Shown here: piece after piece, positions 54,339 to 62,533 of the stretch
How positions within the stretch are numbered: position 1 is the first letter of the stretch
Layout of the letters: the number at the start of each line of letters is the position of its first letter
Assembly (NCBI GenBank): GCA_964627245.1
Contig: CAZVGS010000001.1
Span: 89,256-153,255 of the forward strand
DNA: 64,000 bases
Source of the DNA: an uncultured Gammaproteobacteria bacterium
GTDB lineage: Bacteria > Patescibacteriota > Microgenomatia > Levybacterales > GWA1-39-11
Direction of reading: 5' to 3'
The notes under the pieces: generated by a model
Told to the model about the DNA's origin: nothing
Seen by the model: the letters and a program-made list of their open reading frames with translations, nothing else
The model's database searches: none
Made by a program: the position numbers and the translations under genes

Positions 54339-54617
54339 TCTTTTAAGAAGATAGTTTATGACATAAATATTTTATAGTATAAACTATATTCTGTCAAGGA
54401 ACGATTTCATAATACAGATTTTAAATTCAAACCTTTTTACCTAAATACTTATTTGTAAGCAGTGCTTTCGAATATAGAAATTCAGGTATATCCTAAATGT
54501 AATCTTATTGGAGAAAGACTGTCAACCTAAGTAATCAAAAAAAGTTAAGATATTCCGCCAATGTGGTATAATTTGTCCACAAAAATACCAAAGAAGTACT
54601 CAGACCAGTAATATTCT

Positions 54618-55601
54618 ATGGAAAGACACATTAGTGAATTGGACTCTCAATATACTCCCGAAGTTCTAAAAACTGTAAGGCAGGACCCATTTCTTGCGAA
54701 TTTGAAGGAAATTAATGAAATCACTCCTGTTTCAAATGGTGTTTCTCATTACGTATATAAAATTACTACAGACAAAGATAATTTTTTTTTGAAGATACGA
54801 GAGAATCACTTTTCAAGGCTTCCTGAAATTGCAATAAGACCAGAGGACATTAAGAGTGAATATAAAGCACTAACCATTTACGAATCTTTCATGCCAAATA
54901 ATTTCCCCCAAATAGTCTCTTTTAGTGACCAAAAACACTACCTAATAACTACAGACGCAACATTCAATGGTATGTTGTTCCAGGAAACTTTAATAAGTGG
55001 AGACGCTACAGGAGAAATGGTTTATAATCTTGGATCAACATTGAAGGAGATTCATACTTCAACTGCAGCATACACGGATGATATCAGGGAAGAGGGGGAT
55101 AGCACCCATTATGATCTGAAGCTATTGCATAGATTTGAATTCGCTAAAAACGATGGACTCGATGAGGTAGTTGAGAAATTAAAAAAACAAAAAAAACAAT
55201 TAATTTTGGGGGACCCAGCCCCTAAAAACATTGGCATCAATAATAATGGACTACTCTTTATCTTCTTTGATCTCGAAGATGCTCATCAAGGTAATCCCAT
55301 CTTTGACTGTGGCTATTTGCTTGGTCATATATTATTACATAATCTTTTGGATCCAAAAAAAGCGAGCGAATTAGCGGATGACTATACAAGCGGTTATGGA
55401 ATAGAAAAGTTTGATGAAGATATGCTTAAAAAAATTGCATTGGGAATAGTAAGATACCGATTAGGAGGTAAAATTCCATATCCGGCACCAAATATTCCGC
55501 AAGACATGAAAATACCGATAATGAATAGAATCGAAAACATTTTTCAGGTAAATCTCAAAACTTCAGATTGGACTACAATATTTACTTATTTGAAAGCGTG
55601 A
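54618..55601 (+). CDS. Protein-kinase-like fold phosphotransferase (APH/CotS/choline-kinase family)
   Basis: 327 aa. LILGDPAPKNIGI ... IFFDLEDAH (catalytic-loop D...N and DxE metal loop). Distantly similar to the 33418..34392 gene. Confidence 0.5.
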   Translation: MERHISELDSQYTPEVLKTVRQDPFLANLKEINEITPVSNGVSHYVYKITTDKDNFFLKIRENHFSRLPEIAIRPEDIKSEYKALTIYESFMPNNFPQIVSFSDQKHYLITTDATFNGMLFQETLISGDATGEMVYNLGSTLKEIHTSTAAYTDDIREEGDSTHYDLKLLHRFEFAKNDGLDEVVEKLKKQKKQLILGDPAPKNIGINNNGLLFIFFDLEDAHQGNPIFDCGYLLGHILLHNLLDPKKASELADDYTSGYGIEKFDEDMLKKIALGIVRYRLGGKIPYPAPNIPQDMKIPIMNRIENIFQVNLKTSDWTTIFTYLKA

Positions 55602-55615
55602 AAAAATTAAATTTA

Positions 55616-57040
55616 ATGCTTATTGGCGTGGGTCCGCATGCAAAGCGGATTTATTATCCAATTTGCAAACAGGAAAAGTCTTTAGGCGTTAAAATTGTAT
55701 GTGGGGTTGATTTAATAGAAAAAAGGAACGACATTGAGGAATACTTTGAAAAATATCAAGATAGAATGCCCATGCATTATGTGGCTAAGAATGCATATTC
55801 TAAAAAACTAACAAAACAAACAGCAGCAGCACTTAACAAGCTTGTACGAAAATATCAAGTCGATGGAGTAATCATTTCAACTGATCCTTTAGCTCACCTT
55901 CGCTATGGCTTGTGGGCCATTAGCCAAAATCTTCACGTATTGATGGATAAACCTATCTCTGCAGTCCCAGGATCATCAGTAAATGAGACAGCAGCAAGTG
56001 AAATTCTTTCTGATTTTTATTTACTGAAGAAAGCTCATATCAAAACAGGTAAAGATGCAATATTTAGTATCATGGCTCAAAGGCGGTTTCATCAAACATA
56101 TATAAAAGTACGCAAAATGGTAGAGGAAATTTTCAAAAAAACTAATTGTCCTATTACTTCTATTCAAACCGCTCACTCTGACGGTCAATGGAGACTTCCA
56201 TCGGAAATAATTGATATGGATTATCATTCTTTTGATCAGGGCTTAGGCAAGATTTCTCATTCTGGGTATCACTTCCTAGATATGATTTGCTGGCTTATAA
56301 GCGCTGCTACTACAGAGAAGAAGAAGGTAAATAATGTTGACATTTTTGCGCAAGCAATGCGTCCTACTGATTTTATCTCTCAAATAAATTTTTCTGATTA
56401 CAAAAATTTATTTGCAGATTTTTCCAAAATAAACAAATATTCCGAAAAAGAATTTAGAGAAATAACAAAAAAATACGGAGAAATTGACACATTTATCAAT
56501 TTCGCTTTCAAACATAATTCTGATGTAATTACTTTGAGTAGCTCAAATTTAATGCATAATGGTTTCTCTCAGCGAGGTTGGCTATTACCTAAGAAAGATT
56601 TGTACAAGGGAAATGGAAGAGTGAGACAGGAAGCAATGTTCATCGAACAAGGCCCCTTTCAGTCTATTTCGCTCGTCTCTTATCAGTCAAATGAAATAAA
56701 TAAAAATTCTAATAAAAAAGTTTATGATATAGGCGGTGAGTACCACTTGGACGTACATGTTTTTAGAAATAACAATTATAATCCAGAGTGGAAAGACTAT
56801 GAAAAGTTCTCGGTTGAGGATTTATCAGAAAATAGACTAAGAGGTTATTCTAGGGGTCATCAAGAAGATGCACGAAGAAACTCGATTATTGAATTTATAG
56901 AATGCGCGAAAGGTAATCACATAAAACAAAAATCTAGTCTGCTATCTCATGAATCTACTGTTAAACTTATGAGTGGAACATATCTTTCAATGGCGAAAAA
57001 ATTTAATTCTGAAAATCCTGTTGTAAATATCAGGCTCTAG
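55616..57040 (+). CDS. Rossmann-fold NAD(P)-binding oxidoreductase (Gfo/Idh/MocA-like N-terminus) with a long C-terminal domain
   Basis: MLIGVGPHAKRIYYPI (GxGxxA), then a beta-strand with acidic DLIEKR. About 475 aa from the internal Met. Confidence 0.45.
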   Translation: MLIGVGPHAKRIYYPICKQEKSLGVKIVCGVDLIEKRNDIEEYFEKYQDRMPMHYVAKNAYSKKLTKQTAAALNKLVRKYQVDGVIISTDPLAHLRYGLWAISQNLHVLMDKPISAVPGSSVNETAASEILSDFYLLKKAHIKTGKDAIFSIMAQRRFHQTYIKVRKMVEEIFKKTNCPITSIQTAHSDGQWRLPSEIIDMDYHSFDQGLGKISHSGYHFLDMICWLISAATTEKKKVNNVDIFAQAMRPTDFISQINFSDYKNLFADFSKINKYSEKEFREITKKYGEIDTFINFAFKHNSDVITLSSSNLMHNGFSQRGWLLPKKDLYKGNGRVRQEAMFIEQGPFQSISLVSYQSNEINKNSNKKVYDIGGEYHLDVHVFRNNNYNPEWKDYEKFSVEDLSENRLRGYSRGHQEDARRNSIIEFIECAKGNHIKQKSSLLSHESTVKLMSGTYLSMAKKFNSENPVVNIRL

Positions 57041-57043
57041 TCC

Positions 57044-57739
57044 ATGAGATTTCAAATACTAGGAAGGAATACTATTGAGAAGGCTTCAGGTCTCGTTGTG
57101 GTAATAGACGTCCTCAGAGCGTTTACAACAGCATGCTACATATTTTCAAAAGGAGCAAAAGAAATCGTGCTTGCATCAACTCCCGAGGAGGGACTTCTTT
57201 TGAAAAAGCAGTATCCTAAATATCTTTTAGTAGGTGAGCGTAAGGGGCTAAAACTCACAGGATATGATTATGGAAACTCTCCATTTGAAATAAAACAAGC
57301 CAGTCTTTTAGATAAGACTGTCGTGATGACAACTTCCCTGGGGACCTCAACTCTTCTTGATTTGTACACATTATCAAAAGGCAAAGAATTTATTACTGGA
57401 AGTTTTGTTAATGCATCGGCCATTATTAACTACATAAAAAAAAGCAAATATGAAATAGTGAGCCTTATATGCACAGACGACTCCTTCAATGATAACGAGG
57501 ATTACATGTGTGCAAAATATATAGTAAGCAACTTTATAGGAAAATCTCTTGACTTTCAAAAAATAAAGGAAGATTTGACCAAACATCCAATATCTGAAGG
57601 GTTTCTTAAAAAACCTTTAACTAAATACGCACCAGATGATTTCAATCTGTGTTTGCAAGTGAATAAATTTAGGTTTATTATAATGTCAAATAGATCAGCT
57701 GAGAGAATACTTTTGAAGCCTATAAATTATGAGCGCTGA
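57044..57739 (+). CDS. 2-phosphosulfolactate phosphatase family (ComB-like)
   Basis: 231 aa. VVIDVLRAFTTA ... GERKG ... DYGNSPFE blocks typical of the ComB family (PF04029). Confidence 0.6.
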   Translation: MRFQILGRNTIEKASGLVVVIDVLRAFTTACYIFSKGAKEIVLASTPEEGLLLKKQYPKYLLVGERKGLKLTGYDYGNSPFEIKQASLLDKTVVMTTSLGTSTLLDLYTLSKGKEFITGSFVNASAIINYIKKSKYEIVSLICTDDSFNDNEDYMCAKYIVSNFIGKSLDFQKIKEDLTKHPISEGFLKKPLTKYAPDDFNLCLQVNKFRFIIMSNRSAERILLKPINYER

Positions 57740-59201
57740 AAGAAGTCAAGGTGCACCCAATAGATTTACGCTCCGAAAAGAATACTTTGGCGGTCTGGTC
57801 CTTGATTCCCATTCACCCAAGAATGAATTTATCCAGCCAGATGAATATGAGTTTTTAAGCGAATTAAAAGAAACAGAAGCGGCTATATATGATCAAGTCG
57901 CCCAAAATAATCCCAATTTAGCCCAAAGAGTTGATGCTTTTGCCCAGACTGGATTTGTGGAAAAAGGTCCTAATGGTGAAATTCTTTTGACAAACATCAG
58001 ACTTGTGGATCCTCCTCAAACAATCCGCGAAGGCGTTCTTACCGCTCCCATACGTGTATACGATATGTATACCAGAAAATGCAATCTCACCTGCGAACAT
58101 TGCTACGCTGCAAGCAATCCATTTATTAAAGAGGATAGACGCACCTTAGATCAGACAGCAGATATCATGAGGAAGTTTTATGATGCCGGAGCTATAGAAT
58201 GGCGCTTCACGGGTGGGGAACCCACAGTTTACCCTGACTTATTTGACGCTATTGATGTTGCGCAAGGATTAGGTATGAATGTTAGCCTGAATTCAAATGG
58301 ATGGTGGAGCGAAAATACTGCAAAAAAAGTACTTAGTGCTGGAATATCAGAAATGGTAATTAGCATTGAAGGTGAACCAGGAACAAATGACTTAAGAAGA
58401 AAGGTGGGTTCTTATGATCATGTAGTCGACACTCTCGATAAAGTGGCGCATCACAATAAATTATATCCGGATAAATATATGAATGTAATTATAAATACCG
58501 CGGTAGGCAGGGATAATATAAATGACGTAGAATTTGTGGTAAGACTGGCTGCAAAATATGGACACGATATGAACTTTCTTCCATTAAAACCCAGCGGAAG
58601 AGCAAGACATGGACTGCAAACCACGATGCTAAGCCCAAGGGAATGGATGGAATTTTCAAGAAAAGTAAACGAACTTAGATCGGATCCCGAAATAAAAGAT
58701 TCAGGAATTAAACTCAGTCATAAATATAAAGATCTGTTCTGCCCTACTGCTCCTGATCAATCCAATAAACCTTATCCCTTTAACTATGCTGAGTGTGGAG
58801 CAACAACCACAGCTATAAGCATGTTTCCAGATGGAAGGGTTTTCGCATGCCCCTTCGTAATAGAATTTGATGTTAATAATAAATTCGTTGGCCCCAATAT
58901 GATTACGTCATCAGTGGAAGACGCATGGAACGACTTACATATTGACACATTCAGAACTGCCGAGAAAACGCAAGGCTGCTCTAATTGCGGACATCTATCA
59001 AAAGGGTGCAGGGGTGCATGCAAGGCAACAGTTCTTGGGTATGGAGGAGAAATATCGGACGGTAAATTAAAAGGAGAAGATCCGTATTGCTATGCAAATC
59101 TCATGAACGAGAATGGCAAAAACATAGTAATTCCTGAAGACAAAAAGCAAGGACGCCAAATGCTCCCACTTATTGCAATAGATGATATCCCCACACTATA
59201 A
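57729..59201 (+). CDS. Radical SAM enzyme with a C-terminal SPASM domain and a ~110-aa N-terminal extension
   Basis: 490 aa. CNLTCEHCY (CxxxCxxC) at about residue 119, a GGEP motif, and SPASM cysteines C...GRVFAC...CSNCGHLSKGCRGAC. 11-nt overlap with the ComB-like gene. Confidence 0.8.
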   Translation: MSAERSQGAPNRFTLRKEYFGGLVLDSHSPKNEFIQPDEYEFLSELKETEAAIYDQVAQNNPNLAQRVDAFAQTGFVEKGPNGEILLTNIRLVDPPQTIREGVLTAPIRVYDMYTRKCNLTCEHCYAASNPFIKEDRRTLDQTADIMRKFYDAGAIEWRFTGGEPTVYPDLFDAIDVAQGLGMNVSLNSNGWWSENTAKKVLSAGISEMVISIEGEPGTNDLRRKVGSYDHVVDTLDKVAHHNKLYPDKYMNVIINTAVGRDNINDVEFVVRLAAKYGHDMNFLPLKPSGRARHGLQTTMLSPREWMEFSRKVNELRSDPEIKDSGIKLSHKYKDLFCPTAPDQSNKPYPFNYAECGATTTAISMFPDGRVFACPFVIEFDVNNKFVGPNMITSSVEDAWNDLHIDTFRTAEKTQGCSNCGHLSKGCRGACKATVLGYGGEISDGKLKGEDPYCYANLMNENGKNIVIPEDKKQGRQMLPLIAIDDIPTL

Positions 59202-59617
59202 GTTCTATTAAAAATCTTGATACTTTCAGATTTTATATTTGGATTAATCCAGACAATTCCGCATAATAACTTCAATCTCGTAGAATAACTAGGTTAATAA
59301 CCTTGAATAGTCACCCATTCAACATGTTAATCAAATTAATATTATATGAAAAACTGATTGGGAACGAGAAAATATACTAAAATTAGGCTATCTAAGGTCA
59401 ATTACTTAAATTTTGTTATTAAATCCTGATTTGTTTGAGGCATTAATTTAGTTGGTCGCATAACTGTTGTGAGCTACCCGACCCTATTTTCGAACGGATT
59501 GTTTCTCACGCTTTAAAGGTTTGGGAAGTGTACCAGCAGCTTCTCTAGCTAGGAAATCATCAGCTAGTAATTCTGCAAGCTCATCTAATATTTCATCTTC
59601 AGTTTTCTTTTTCTTAA

Positions 59618-60103
59618 CTACCTGACGGGACATAATATAAAAGCATGATGATGAACAATAGTATTTTTATATTCTATTGATTCAAGAGAGGTAGTAACAC
59701 TTGTTTCAGGGTAACTACCGGTTAGTTTATATCTGTATTGCCAATCTCCCTCAGGTTCAGGTTCACAATCTTCCATTAATCTAGTCTTCTCTCCAAGTTC
59801 TAATATCATATGTTTTAAATATGAGCCCACTTCTTTATCAGATATACCTAATGACGATAAAACTTCATCATTTGGTGTTCCGCCAGCATACAAACGAGTA
59901 AAGGTTTCATCTCCTACACGGACCAGTTCCTGTCCCCCACCAGAGCTACTAGCAAACCACTCGTCATGATAAGTTGCACCCTCTGGAAGCTCAACATGAC
60001 TCACATTACCAGAAAAATCTCCACGATTTATACTTTCAGGTTTGCCTCCAGCATACCCAGCGTTTAGACCGTTTGTTAAAGCTGATTTAAATTCCTGTTT
60101 CAC
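59618..60103 (-). pseudogene. Hypothetical gene apparently split by a -1 frameshift (161-aa ORF plus a 49-aa ORF at 59484..59633)
   Basis: The two ORFs overlap out of frame at 59618-59633. The downstream piece (MSRQVVKKKKTEDEILDELAELLADDFLAREAAGTLPKPLKREKQSVRK) has clear coding character. Confidence 0.35.
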
Positions 60104-61128: not shown

Positions 61129-61143
61129 ACGATTGCAACAAAA

Positions 61144-61217
61144 GGCCCCATCGTCTAGTGGCCTAGGACGTCGGGCTTTCATCCCGAAAATCGCGGGTTC
61201 GACTCCCGCTGGGGTCA
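61144..61217 (+). tRNA. tRNA-Glu (anticodon TTC)
   Basis: GGCCCCATCGTCTAGTGGCCTAGGACGTCGGGCTTTCATCCCGAAAATCGCGGGTTCGACTCCCGCTGGGGTCA. Anticodon loop CTTTCAT. The ORF-track ORF that starts at 61133 reads through it. Confidence 0.8.
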
Positions 61218-61258
61218 CAATTAACTTGCTCACTTTGGTTGAGATTTATTTTGTCATT

Positions 61259-62533
61259 ATGGGTGTAGTACTTATTTTAGGAACTCAGTGGGGAGATGAG
61301 GGAAAGGGAAAAGTTATCGATGCGCTGAGCAAAAACTCGGAATTCGTTGTCCGCTTCCAGGGCGGTAACAACGCAGGACATACGGTCATAAATCCTCTTG
61401 GAGAATTCAAACTTCACCTAATTCCTGCTGGTGTATTTGAAAAAAAATCAAAAGTAGCAATAGCAAATGGTGTTGTAATTGATCCTGAAGTACTTGTTGA
61501 AGAAATTGAAAGTCTTGAAAAAGCAGGAATTGATCTCAAAAATAGGCTATACATATCTCCAAGATGCCATATTATTTTGCCTTATCATAAGCTTTTGGAA
61601 AAGGTGTATGAGGAGGCAAAAGGAAAAGGCAAAACAGGAACCACGGGGCGTGGAATAGGTCCTGTCTATTCGGATAAAGTCGGCTACAACGGCATCAGAC
61701 TTTATGACTTAATGGATCCTAAAAAATTTAAGAACAAGCTTGAAATTCAGCTTGGGTTAAAAAATGCAATTCTTAAATCATACGGAATAAAACCTTTGTC
61801 ATTTAGCACCATAGAAAAAACAATGAAACCTATACGAAAAAAGTTGCTGCCGTATATTAATGAACCCTTTCCCTTCATCCAAGAAGCATTAAAGAAAAAT
61901 AAAAAAATTATGATCGAGGGCGCGCAAGCTGTTTTTCTTGACAACGACTGGGGAACCTACCCATTCGTGACTGCTTCAACCATCGTTTCTGGCGGCATAA
62001 CGGGAGGTGCGGGAATTGCACCTAAATACCTGAAAGAAATTATTGGAGTAATCAAAGCATATACCACAAGAGTTGGTGAAGGACCTTTTCCGACTGAATT
62101 TGATGCTAGCGAAAGTGAGCATATCAGAAACCTTGGCCTGGAATTTGGAGCAACGACAGGAAGGGCAAGAAGGTGCGGATGGCTTGATTTGGAGATGGTA
62201 AGATTTGCAGTCGAGTTGAATGGAATTACTGACCTTGCACTAACCAAAATTGATGTCCTAGATACATACAAAGAAATAAAGCTCTGCACCGGCTACAAAT
62301 TGGAAGGCAAAATCCTGAGGTATTATGACGGTGATGAAATCTTTCTTGATAACGTAGAACCTGTATACAAGACGATGAAAGGCTGGCAATCAAGCACAAA
62401 AGGCGTAACCTTATTTGATAAGCTTCCTAGAGAAGCAAAAGCTTACATCGCGGAGATTGAAAAGCAGACAGGAGTAAAAGTCGCATACATCTCAACAGGT
62501 CCTTCAAGGGAAGAGATGATAGCAAGAAGCTAG
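61259..62533 (+). CDS. purA: Adenylosuccinate synthetase
   Basis: MGVVLILGTQWGDEGKGKVIDAL P-loop, GGNNAGHT, TTGRGIGP, C-terminal conserved blocks. Start at the Met 61259. Confidence 0.9.
   Translation: MGVVLILGTQWGDEGKGKVIDALSKNSEFVVRFQGGNNAGHTVINPLGEFKLHLIPAGVFEKKSKVAIANGVVIDPEVLVEEIESLEKAGIDLKNRLYISPRCHIILPYHKLLEKVYEEAKGKGKTGTTGRGIGPVYSDKVGYNGIRLYDLMDPKKFKNKLEIQLGLKNAILKSYGIKPLSFSTIEKTMKPIRKKLLPYINEPFPFIQEALKKNKKIMIEGAQAVFLDNDWGTYPFVTASTIVSGGITGGAGIAPKYLKEIIGVIKAYTTRVGEGPFPTEFDASESEHIRNLGLEFGATTGRARRCGWLDLEMVRFAVELNGITDLALTKIDVLDTYKEIKLCTGYKLEGKILRYYDGDEIFLDNVEPVYKTMKGWQSSTKGVTLFDKLPREAKAYIAEIEKQTGVKVAYISTGPSREEMIARS

Follow-up and report, generated by a model that had tools for sequence, protein, structure and literature searches.

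Gene clusters for peptide natural products of any class are tracked down through domains known as RREs (RiPP recognition elements, RiPP standing for ribosomally synthesised and post-translationally modified peptide). SuiB (streptide), CteB and TigE, and also SkfB, join an N-terminal RRE of βββ-ααα order to a radical S-adenosylmethionine (SAM) barrel and a seven-cysteine SPASM domain, with two auxiliary clusters. An enzyme of the same construction, here called rSAM, is encoded in a stretch of 64,000 nucleotides of contig CAZVGS010000001.1 (assembly GCA_964627245.1) from an uncultured bacterium of the candidate phyla radiation (CPR), and this whole stretch is referred to as the window. A classical role in RiPP maturation is unlikely for rSAM despite its real RRE, because its gene ends a conserved operon for small-molecule enzymes with nucleotide-metabolism neighbours.

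The radical SAM enzyme and its N-terminal domain

The original prediction, made from the sequence of the window, had described a SPASM-domain radical SAM enzyme with an extra N-terminal domain, and the ATG-started open reading frame (ORF) of 490 amino acids is present as described. Both Pfam models concerned score above their cut-offs: Radical_SAM (PF04055) matches residues 115-270 with 61.8 bits (gathering cut-off 29.5) and SPASM (PF13186) residues 356-420 with 25.3 bits (cut-off 21.5). The CxxxCxxC motif for the SAM-binding [4Fe-4S] cluster, together with the PF04055 score, places the protein in the radical SAM superfamily. It was correctly recognised but begins at residue 118 and not at residue 119 (C118-x3-C122-x2-C125), and all three cysteines are invariant among 79 aligned homologues. 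In the same alignment, the seven cysteines that had been noticed as a SPASM pattern are invariant as well (C356-x12-G369-x4-C374 ... C417-x2-C420-x6-C427-x3-C431 ... C454). This is the pattern of a SPASM domain, with a third spacing of x6 where the canonical motif (Cx9-15Gx4C ... Cx2Cx5Cx3C ... C) has x5, and seven cysteines suffice for two auxiliary [4Fe-4S] clusters.

When 5.8 billion proteins were searched, rSAM had more than 100 homologues, of 40-81 % identity and about 455 amino acids. They are named merely 'radical SAM protein' and stem mainly from metagenome-assembled genomes (MAGs) of Patescibacteria or CPR bacteria, the closest genome match (81 %) being a Candidatus Levybacteria MAG. 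An ORF of 490 codons in DNA of about 36-39 % GC with so deep a family of homologues is well past chance expectation. The enzyme belongs to no curated family. All 61 NCBIfam models that it matches remain far below their curated cut-offs, for instance PqqE (TIGR02109; 56.9 vs 381) and AhbD (81.6 vs 500), and the best curated hidden Markov model (HMM), MftC (TIGR03962), yields 100.5 bits (E = 1e-28) against a cut-off of 265.

The N-terminal extension is real and no start-codon artefact, because the homologues, more than 100 in number, cover its approximately 105 residues with a conserved motif, 'RFTLRKEYFGGL..D'. Of this motif, R16, E18 and G21 do not vary in the homologue sets, and Y19, F20, G22 and D26 vary little or not at all. 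A strict βββ-ααα order of elements defines an RRE (PMC12710340). Structure prediction, which had been proposed as a check of the RRE-like nature of the extension, gave precisely this order in AlphaFold2 (AF2) models (β13-18, β21-26, β32-35, α37-49, α54-60, α62-74, followed by a β-hairpin), and the models of the isolated domain and of the full-length protein agree on it. The predicted local distance difference test (pLDDT) value is 82 for the isolated domain and above 88 for the domain within the full-length model, which as a whole reaches 91.6 with a predicted template modelling (pTM) score of 0.91.

A direct hmmscan of 30 N-termini of the family against Pfam gave no PqqD match at E <= 5 and no match to any Pfam family, and a profile search of the PDB with the domain returned just one insignificant winged-helix match, MecI. 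The isolated domain had weak Foldseek matches (all E > 0.1), mostly to winged-helix regulators with AspA, IdeR and MarR as the best; SuiB and the RRE of a lasso-peptide B1 protein were also among them. Winged-helix regulators are a recognised class of false positives in RRE searches. The full-length model is decisive for the RRE because the RRE-containing SPASM maturases SuiB, CteB and TigE align over nearly the whole query. Its best fold matches in the PDB are SuiB, SkfB and CteB, and TigE is found too. SuiB aligns over 461-491 columns (E = 3.5e-19; template modelling scores 0.63/0.72), CteB over 453-459 and TigE over 489, whereas the RRE-less enzymes PqqE, anSME, BlsE, viperin and MoaA align over just about 300-420 columns.

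Moreover, a profile of the domain retrieved 60 matches at E <= 0.001 from 1.84 billion representative proteins. It retrieves the 82-residue protein P0269 (E = 3.6e-5), which scores 39.3 bits on the PqqD model PF05402 (cut-off 23.4), as well as P0275, which scores 21.9 bits on Pfam PqqD. The link of the rSAM domain to PF05402 is transitive, via P0269, the direct scan having given none. HHalign of the domain family with stand-alone PqqD-like proteins gave a probability of 98.7 %. Because AF2 element order, full-length fold matches and the profile link to Pfam PqqD agree, the extension is assigned to the PqqD/RRE superfamily as a rare divergent branch, and the domain is inherited from peptide-maturase ancestors. 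An unrelated fold together with clustering among carbohydrate-active radical SAM dehydrogenases, which would have spoken against the RRE, was found neither in the AF2 models nor in the match lists, a comparison made without a tree. Two remote matches of the domain profile, P0267 and P0285, are read-through ORFs in which a repetitive peptide directly precedes the RRE. The peptide is Cys-rich in P0267 (CCVGECCV...) and Trp/Tyr-rich in P0285 (WPYDW... repeats), and both are likely unannotated RiPP precursors beside related maturases in other organisms.

About 30 residues at the C-terminus of rSAM form a clade-specific tail, which in the homologue alignment is common only to P0001, P0003 and P0059. 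It is kept up to the stop codon at L007, the locus of an 81 %-identical Levybacteria relative. The tails of P0003 and P0059 contain comparable short '(L/I)(L/I)P(L/V)' motifs, and the tail of rSAM could be a cis-docking or partner-binding motif. At the locus L015 (437-1821), an insertion sequence (IS) element encoding a 400-residue transposase interrupts the rSAM gene exactly at the boundary between RRE and core. An intron, an intein and a naturally split RRE were rejected as explanations, and this gene is probably inactive because of the insertion.

A conserved operon with nucleotide-enzyme neighbours

The original prediction had overlooked that the rSAM gene closes a four-gene operon that is conserved and, with overlaps of 4-37 nucleotides, translationally coupled; its order is APH kinase, GFO490, ComB phosphatase and rSAM (Table 1). 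The start of the rSAM gene overlaps the stop of the upstream ComB-type gene by 11 nucleotides (tATGAGCGCTGA), and in most loci the intercistronic spacing is between -37 and +15 nucleotides. To judge from sequence, all operon partners of rSAM have small-molecule enzyme folds. The APH-fold kinase has no NCBIfam match. Its profile finds PsiK as the best PDB match with just E = 0.006, so that it is distant from every solved kinase and appears to be a new subfamily. GFO490, as the second gene product is called here, seems to be only distantly related to the Gfo/Idh/MocA sugar and inositol dehydrogenases. It scores 19.4 bits on PF01408, which is below the cut-off of 24, all members scanned (24/24) match the iolG model weakly around the LMDKP motif (at most about 25 bits), and the PDB match to YhhX extends over about 50 residues (E = 3e-4). 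Gfo/Idh/MocA oxidoreductases are marked by an N-terminal Rossmann motif of the GxGxxG type and by an 'EKP' motif. In the GFO490 family, G20-x-G22-x-H-A and L-M-D127-K128-P129 are invariant, and the mean column identity is 62 %. Two starts are possible for GFO490, TTG at 55568 and ATG at 55616, the latter being that of the database protein P0201. The profile of the ComB-fold phosphatase matches the ComB structures 2yyv (E = 3e-32) and 1vr0 (E = 9e-30). The protein is below the cut-off of every ComB equivalog in NCBIfam (115 vs 235), which assigns it at the level of the 2-phosphosulfolactate-phosphatase family only. The promoter-like site in front of the kinase gene is a probable operon promoter; the call is only suggestive because promoter-like sites are no more numerous in this region than expected by chance.

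Table 1 Features of the rSAM operon in the window and of related modules at other loci (numbers after an L handle are positions within that locus)
Feature	Position	Strand	Protein residues	Evidence and remarks
Promoter-like site, TTAAGA-16-TATAAT with TG extended -10	54545..54572	+		Best plus-strand intergenic match; 45 nt 5' of kinase start
Cistron 1, APH-fold small-molecule kinase (putative)	54618..55601	+	327 aa	Pfam APH 44.6 bits
Cistron 2, GFO490, Gfo/Idh/MocA-type NAD(P) dehydrogenase (putative)	55568..57040	+	about 485-490 aa	Weak GFO_IDH_MocA and iolG matches
Cistron 3, ComB-fold phosphatase	57044..57739	+	231 aa	PF04029 (2-ph_phosp) 146.7 bits, cut-off 26.4
Cistron 4, rSAM	57729..59201	+	490 aa	Pfam Radical_SAM and SPASM
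PqqD/RRE-type domain of rSAM	57729..58043	+	1-105	AF2 models, fold search, profile link to PqqD, conserved motif
Radical SAM core of rSAM	58050..58718	+	about 108-330	CxxxCxxC at 58080-58103; GGEP-type motif T161-G-G-E164 and Cys invariant
SPASM domain of rSAM	58794..59108	+	356-460	Pfam SPASM; seven invariant Cys
Disordered C-terminal tail of rSAM, '...RQMLPLIAIDDIPTL', with stop codon	59109..59201	+	461-490	pLDDT about 50
Cassette-linked ribonucleotide reductase	L031:830-2530	-		Ten further loci in addition to the four listed
Cassette-linked ribonucleotide reductase	L010:1525-3285	-		
Cassette-linked ribonucleotide reductase	L009:15200-16921	+		
Cassette-linked ribonucleotide reductase	L037:9064-10782	+		
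dTMP-kinase-like, GFO490 and NUDIX module	L083:6381-8814			
dTMP-kinase-like, GFO490 and NUDIX module	L082:6366-8829			
dTMP-kinase-like, GFO490 and NUDIX module	L079:8373-10829			
dTMP-kinase-like, GFO490 and NUDIX module	L080:9001-11710			

For the comparison, 81 loci were gathered from genome, metagenome and assembly collections. Dereplication at 90 % identity reduced 59 loci of the rSAM family to 38 groups, 20 of which have enough flanking sequence. In these 20 groups, rSAM is accompanied by GFO490 in 18, by ComB in 13 and by APH in 11, in a nearly constant order, and the place of the kinase is constant in most cassettes. The window shares its gene order with L007, L010, L011, L014, L016 and many metagenome loci, and the operon of about 4.6 kb has been kept across Microgenomates, Parcubacteria, Berkelbacteria and other groups. 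The flanks of the cassette are unconserved even at 81 % identity, as seen for the window and L007. GFO490 and rSAM make up the minimal conserved module, GFO490 being the most constant partner. L003 and L004, although their rSAM proteins (P0043) are identical and their neighbourhoods the same, are distinguished by a block of about 3.3 kb, GFO490-APH-ComB, which at L003 (7612-11658) lies between PyrH and a GSDH gene and is absent at L004 (6398-7181), a presence/absence polymorphism at strain level. At L016 (6858-7848) and L042 (3858-4839), the kinase gene is present as two ORFs (204 and 100 amino acids) in otherwise intact cassettes, which may reflect a frameshift or a pseudogene.

More distant members of the rSAM family (about 38-47 % identity) occur in a second type of cluster in CPR bacteria and DPANN-labelled MAGs (L019, 7703-14263; also L020, L021, L051 and L052). 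It encodes a B12-binding radical SAM protein, a SPASM radical SAM protein of 330 amino acids, the RRE-containing rSAM homologue, a DUF4922 protein, a second RRE-type radical SAM-SPASM enzyme and a MazG-like protein. The DUF4922 protein carries an HxHxQ motif and would, in our reading, be HIT/GalT-like. At L019 and its kin, no precursor is visible.

Enzymes of the nucleotide or phospho-sugar kind are frequent around the cassettes. Variants of the cassette carry accessory genes for HIT, sugar-1-phosphate nucleotidyltransferase-like, methyltransferase, second APH and PyrE-like phosphoribosyltransferase proteins, and furthermore for HAD-IIB phosphatase, 2H phosphoesterase, a true uridine monophosphate (UMP) kinase and NUDIX proteins. 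In 14 of 31 representative loci, a class II-like ribonucleotide reductase (RNR) of 570-590 amino acids is encoded immediately upstream of the kinase-GFO490 unit and divergent from it, and this arrangement is kept also when the unit has the opposite orientation to ComB and rSAM. The cassette-linked RNRs score 277-321 bits on the NrdJ model and thus remain under its cut-off of 400. They have kept the thiyl Cys as well as the Glu and the redox Cys. All nine full-length members examined are devoid of the C-terminal Cys pair, end on a conserved 'YRD(G/N/K)S...QP.(K/N)L' and have Pro in place of the catalytic Asn of the finger loop (PPC[AS]E). These short class II-like RNRs appear to be a distinct clade. 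The class Ø RNR (eLife 2022) was considered and rejected, being unlike them in size, partner and hosts. No RNR is found near the window cassette, near that of L007 or near any locus with GFO490 and rSAM only.

GFO490 has at least 120 close orthologues. In L079, L080, L082 and L083 it occurs without an rSAM gene within 7-9 kb, as part of a triad with a deoxythymidine monophosphate (dTMP)-kinase-like protein and a NUDIX protein that is closest to (deoxy)nucleoside triphosphate ((d)NTP) pyrophosphatases. The contig of L083 is phage-like (endolysin, DnaD-like protein, DNA methyltransferase, terminase), and those of L082 (resolvase) and L079 (type IV secretion system) resemble mobile elements. The module suggests modification of the nucleotide pool or of DNA precursors. 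Scans of viral contigs for rSAM and for GFO490 gave no matches.

The combination of a minimal GFO490-rSAM module with an atypical RNR could also mean that rSAM is a maturase or activase of a protein, its RRE docking a terminal segment of GFO490 or of the RNR and the radical chemistry installing a modification or a radical. Pairs such as anSME/sulfatase, QhpD/QhpC and NrdG/NrdD are analogues, whole proteins are known to be modified by some SPASM enzymes, and the fold matches of rSAM include anSME. The exchange of Asn for Pro, the missing Cys pair and the conserved 'YRDGS...QP.KL' end of the RNR clade would be in line with this possibility. However, GFO490 exists without rSAM in the four triad loci, the RNR is missing from the window, L007 and the GFO490-rSAM-only loci, and the kinase and the phosphatase are left unexplained, so that we consider a protein substrate quite unlikely.

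It is very improbable that the N-terminal domain, as a winged-helix-type domain, binds nucleic acid and that the operon hypermodifies nucleotides at the level of the DNA or RNA polymer. In favour of this idea, the DNA-binding winged-helix proteins AspA, IdeR and MarR are the best PDB fold matches of the isolated domain, GFO490 modules lie beside DNA methyltransferases on phage-like or mobile contigs, and the accessory 2H, HIT and NUDIX proteins are also enzymes of RNA or DNA ends. Moreover, the thymidine-hypermodification systems of phages combine a kinase, a radical SAM enzyme and oxidoreductases. However, the fold matches are weak and belong to the class of false positives mentioned above, the sequence profiles favour PqqD over regulators, and the partners in the triads resemble enzymes of free (d)NTPs and (deoxy)nucleoside monophosphates.

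The precursor search and the substrate class

That no convincing substrate ORF lies on either side of the rSAM gene had already been stated in the original prediction, and it is borne out by the comparison of small ORFs across loci and with L007. All-versus-all comparison of small intergenic and edge ORFs from 15 and then 23 loci revealed no conserved peptide; the matches were out-of-frame shadows of real neighbouring genes, by which the RNR was discovered. Among the 38 dereplicated groups of loci, no small ORF recurs inside, upstream or downstream of the cassette, and the same-strand ORFs directly 3' of the rSAM stop codon share no feature and are absent altogether in four loci. Within the operon there is no room for a precursor because the four cistrons overlap or abut. 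In comparison with the 81 %-identical L007, sequence conservation stops at the stop codon of rSAM, and in the upstream region the extended -10 promoter element is the sole part in common. Neither of the two candidates that had been named held up: the 16-residue ORF at 54562 overlaps the extended -10 box and has no counterpart in L007, and the 18-residue ORF at about 59326 lies in the DNA past the rSAM stop codon that is unconserved in L007. The flanks of the cassette contain no riboswitch or other RNA element.

Furthermore, no peptidase or exporter is found among the conserved neighbour families of the cassettes. The divergent MarR-HlyD-ABC efflux operon of the window does not recur beside other cassettes and was therefore rejected as a component of the system. 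The rSAM locus shows neither of the two marks of a RiPP cluster, a precursor gene and a leader peptidase and/or exporter. A peptide maturase that binds a precursor encoded elsewhere, or one too short or too variable to be recognised, with the kinase, the dehydrogenase and the phosphatase tailoring the peptide-derived product, is unlikely but would have several points in its favour. The PqqD/RRE domain is genuine, the highest HMM similarity is to MftC, the remote domain relatives P0267 and P0285 directly follow repeat-type precursors, and GFO490 could be a cofactor-dependent dehydrogenase served, for example, by a redox cofactor resembling mycofactocin or pyrroloquinoline quinone (PQQ). On the other hand, precursors are almost always adjacent in known RRE systems, yet the 38 groups contain no conserved small ORF and no conserved peptidase or transporter; the MftC and PqqE scores (100 vs 265 and 57 vs 381) are low, and the genes nearby encode nucleotide enzymes.

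A small-molecule, nucleotide-related pathway is indicated by the partners in the operon, by the variable neighbours and by the lack of a precursor, a peptidase and an exporter. We tentatively favour the view, although somewhat short of being convinced, that the operon acts on a small phosphorylated compound from the class of nucleosides, (deoxy)nucleotides or phospho-sugars and that rSAM catalyses a radical step in its conversion. This reading is preferred because a trio of (pyro)phosphatase, GFO490 and kinase recurs, with NUDIX and Tmk-like proteins on mobile elements and with ComB and APH proteins in cells, which follows the logic of precursor modification in phages (see below). The data themselves show the architecture of rSAM, the homology of its RRE, the conservation of the operon, the lack of an adjacent precursor and the nucleotide enzymes in the neighbourhood; the substrate class and the order of the reactions are what we infer. 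The kinase would phosphorylate a hydroxyl group and the phosphatase would take off a phosphate. In an adjacent redox step, GFO490 may use NAD(P)(H) for the oxidation or reduction of a secondary alcohol or ketone. The hard step would fall to the 5'-deoxyadenosyl radical of rSAM, the two auxiliary clusters transferring electrons. Hydrogen abstraction could lead to dehydration or deoxygenation, to oxidation or to the formation of a C-C bond on the same scaffold. Deoxygenation is one plausible outcome of the joint action of rSAM and GFO490, by analogy with the pairs of radical SAM dehydratase and reductase that occur in the formation of deoxysugars. Since no precursor is adjacent, the RRE would have been repurposed, either as a structural cap or for docking the tail of a partner protein, or it would bind a peptide encoded elsewhere. 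Where it is present, the divergent RNR may feed deoxynucleotides into the pathway.

Several observations weigh against a small-molecule substrate. The architecture and the ancestry of rSAM say peptide maturase. The RRE is strongly conserved, with its invariant motif, in all members of the cassette, the nearest structural relatives (SuiB, SkfB, CteB, PqqE and anSME) all modify peptides or proteins, and MftC is the best HMM match, albeit below the threshold. A literature search found no RRE-fused radical SAM enzyme described as acting on a free small molecule. The substrate class of the operon is assigned only through guilt by association, and the cassette of the window is adjoined by neither RNR, NUDIX nor Tmk. 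Moreover, since L004 does without GFO490-APH-ComB, rSAM is not strictly tied to its partners locally.

A more specific proposal, which we regard as distinctly improbable, is that the operon serves the rSAM-dependent making or modifying of DNA precursors in CPR bacteria and is coupled to the atypical class II-like RNR. In its boldest version, the RRE would dock the RNR (or else GFO490) by its tail, and rSAM would supply a radical or a modification. If true, this could mean that a class II-type RNR runs independently of cobalamin, or that CPR bacteria share a new chemistry of deoxygenation or hypermodification with their phages.

Further features were noted in the window. The intergenic DNA that separates the kinase gene from the divergent MarR gene contains a perfect inverted repeat, TATAGT-ATAA-ACTATA (54373-54388), which is a possible MarR operator and probably part of the MarR-HlyD-ABC operon, not of the cassette. 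On the minus strand, a highly charged ORF of 49 amino acids (59484-59633; MSRQVVKKKKTEDEILDELAELLADDFLAREAAGTLPKPLKREKQSVRK) overlaps the 3' end of a gene for a 161-residue protein (59618-60103) by 16 nucleotides; Pfam gives no match for it, and the other loci lack a counterpart. The listed start of the adenylosuccinate synthetase gene (TTG at 61133) overlaps a tRNA-Glu gene (61144-61218) in the region 61133-61260, and translation probably begins further downstream, at the Met in front of 'GVVLILGTQWGDEGKGK'.

Comparison with known systems

A literature search found no description of this operon or of an RRE-containing radical SAM enzyme in such a setting. In contrast to SuiB, CteB and TigE, to which it is 14-19 % identical, rSAM is encoded without genes for a precursor, a peptidase or an exporter, shares its operon with kinase, dehydrogenase and phosphatase genes, and reaches the cut-off of no maturase model. 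Such a setting would mean either that RREs have been recruited to non-peptide pathways, which affects the assumptions of genome mining, or that an unseen peptide or protein substrate connects radical chemistry with nucleotide metabolism in CPR bacteria.

The link to a dehydrogenase partner is shared with MftC/MftB of the mycofactocin system, and the 'R.E.FGG' motif in the N-terminal domain of rSAM may resemble MftB. In contrast to this system, the RRE is fused to rSAM and not separate as in MftB, and no MftA-, MftD-, MftE- or MftF-like neighbours are present. Viperin, MoaA and BlsE, which act on nucleotides, all appear in the fold or HMM match lists of rSAM, and the viperin gene is paired with a nucleotide kinase. 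However, these enzymes align just over the core of about 310 amino acids and have no RRE, viperin lacks a SPASM domain, and the scores of rSAM are far from the cut-offs for viperin (54.7 vs 180) and MoaA (61.7 vs 284). The carbohydrate radical SAM dehydrogenases of the BtrN type have a twitch domain in place of a full SPASM domain, and no RRE. rSAM possesses both the full SPASM domain and the RRE, and BtrN-type entries are missing from the best HMM, PDB-sequence and fold matches listed for it.

CPR bacteria have minimal genomes and rely on salvaged nucleotides. An operon that has been kept across CPR groups and is partly shared with mobile elements likely matters for their biology, and the linked clade of atypical RNRs is a separate lead on the making of deoxynucleotides in these bacteria. 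The nucleotide-pool modules of phages, such as gp56/gp42/gp1 of T4, consist of a deoxynucleotide pyrophosphatase, a modifying enzyme and a deoxynucleotide kinase, which dephosphorylate, modify and re-phosphorylate their substrate. In contrast to the T4-type module, the modifier GFO490 is a Gfo/Idh/MocA-type oxidoreductase and not a thymidylate-synthase-like hydroxymethylase, and the kinase and the phosphatase of the window have APH and ComB folds. Nevertheless, the triads of NUDIX (d)NTPase-like protein, GFO490 and dTMP-kinase-like protein on phage-like and mobile contigs resemble this module, and the cellular cassette parallels it with a phosphatase, GFO490 (together with rSAM) and a kinase.

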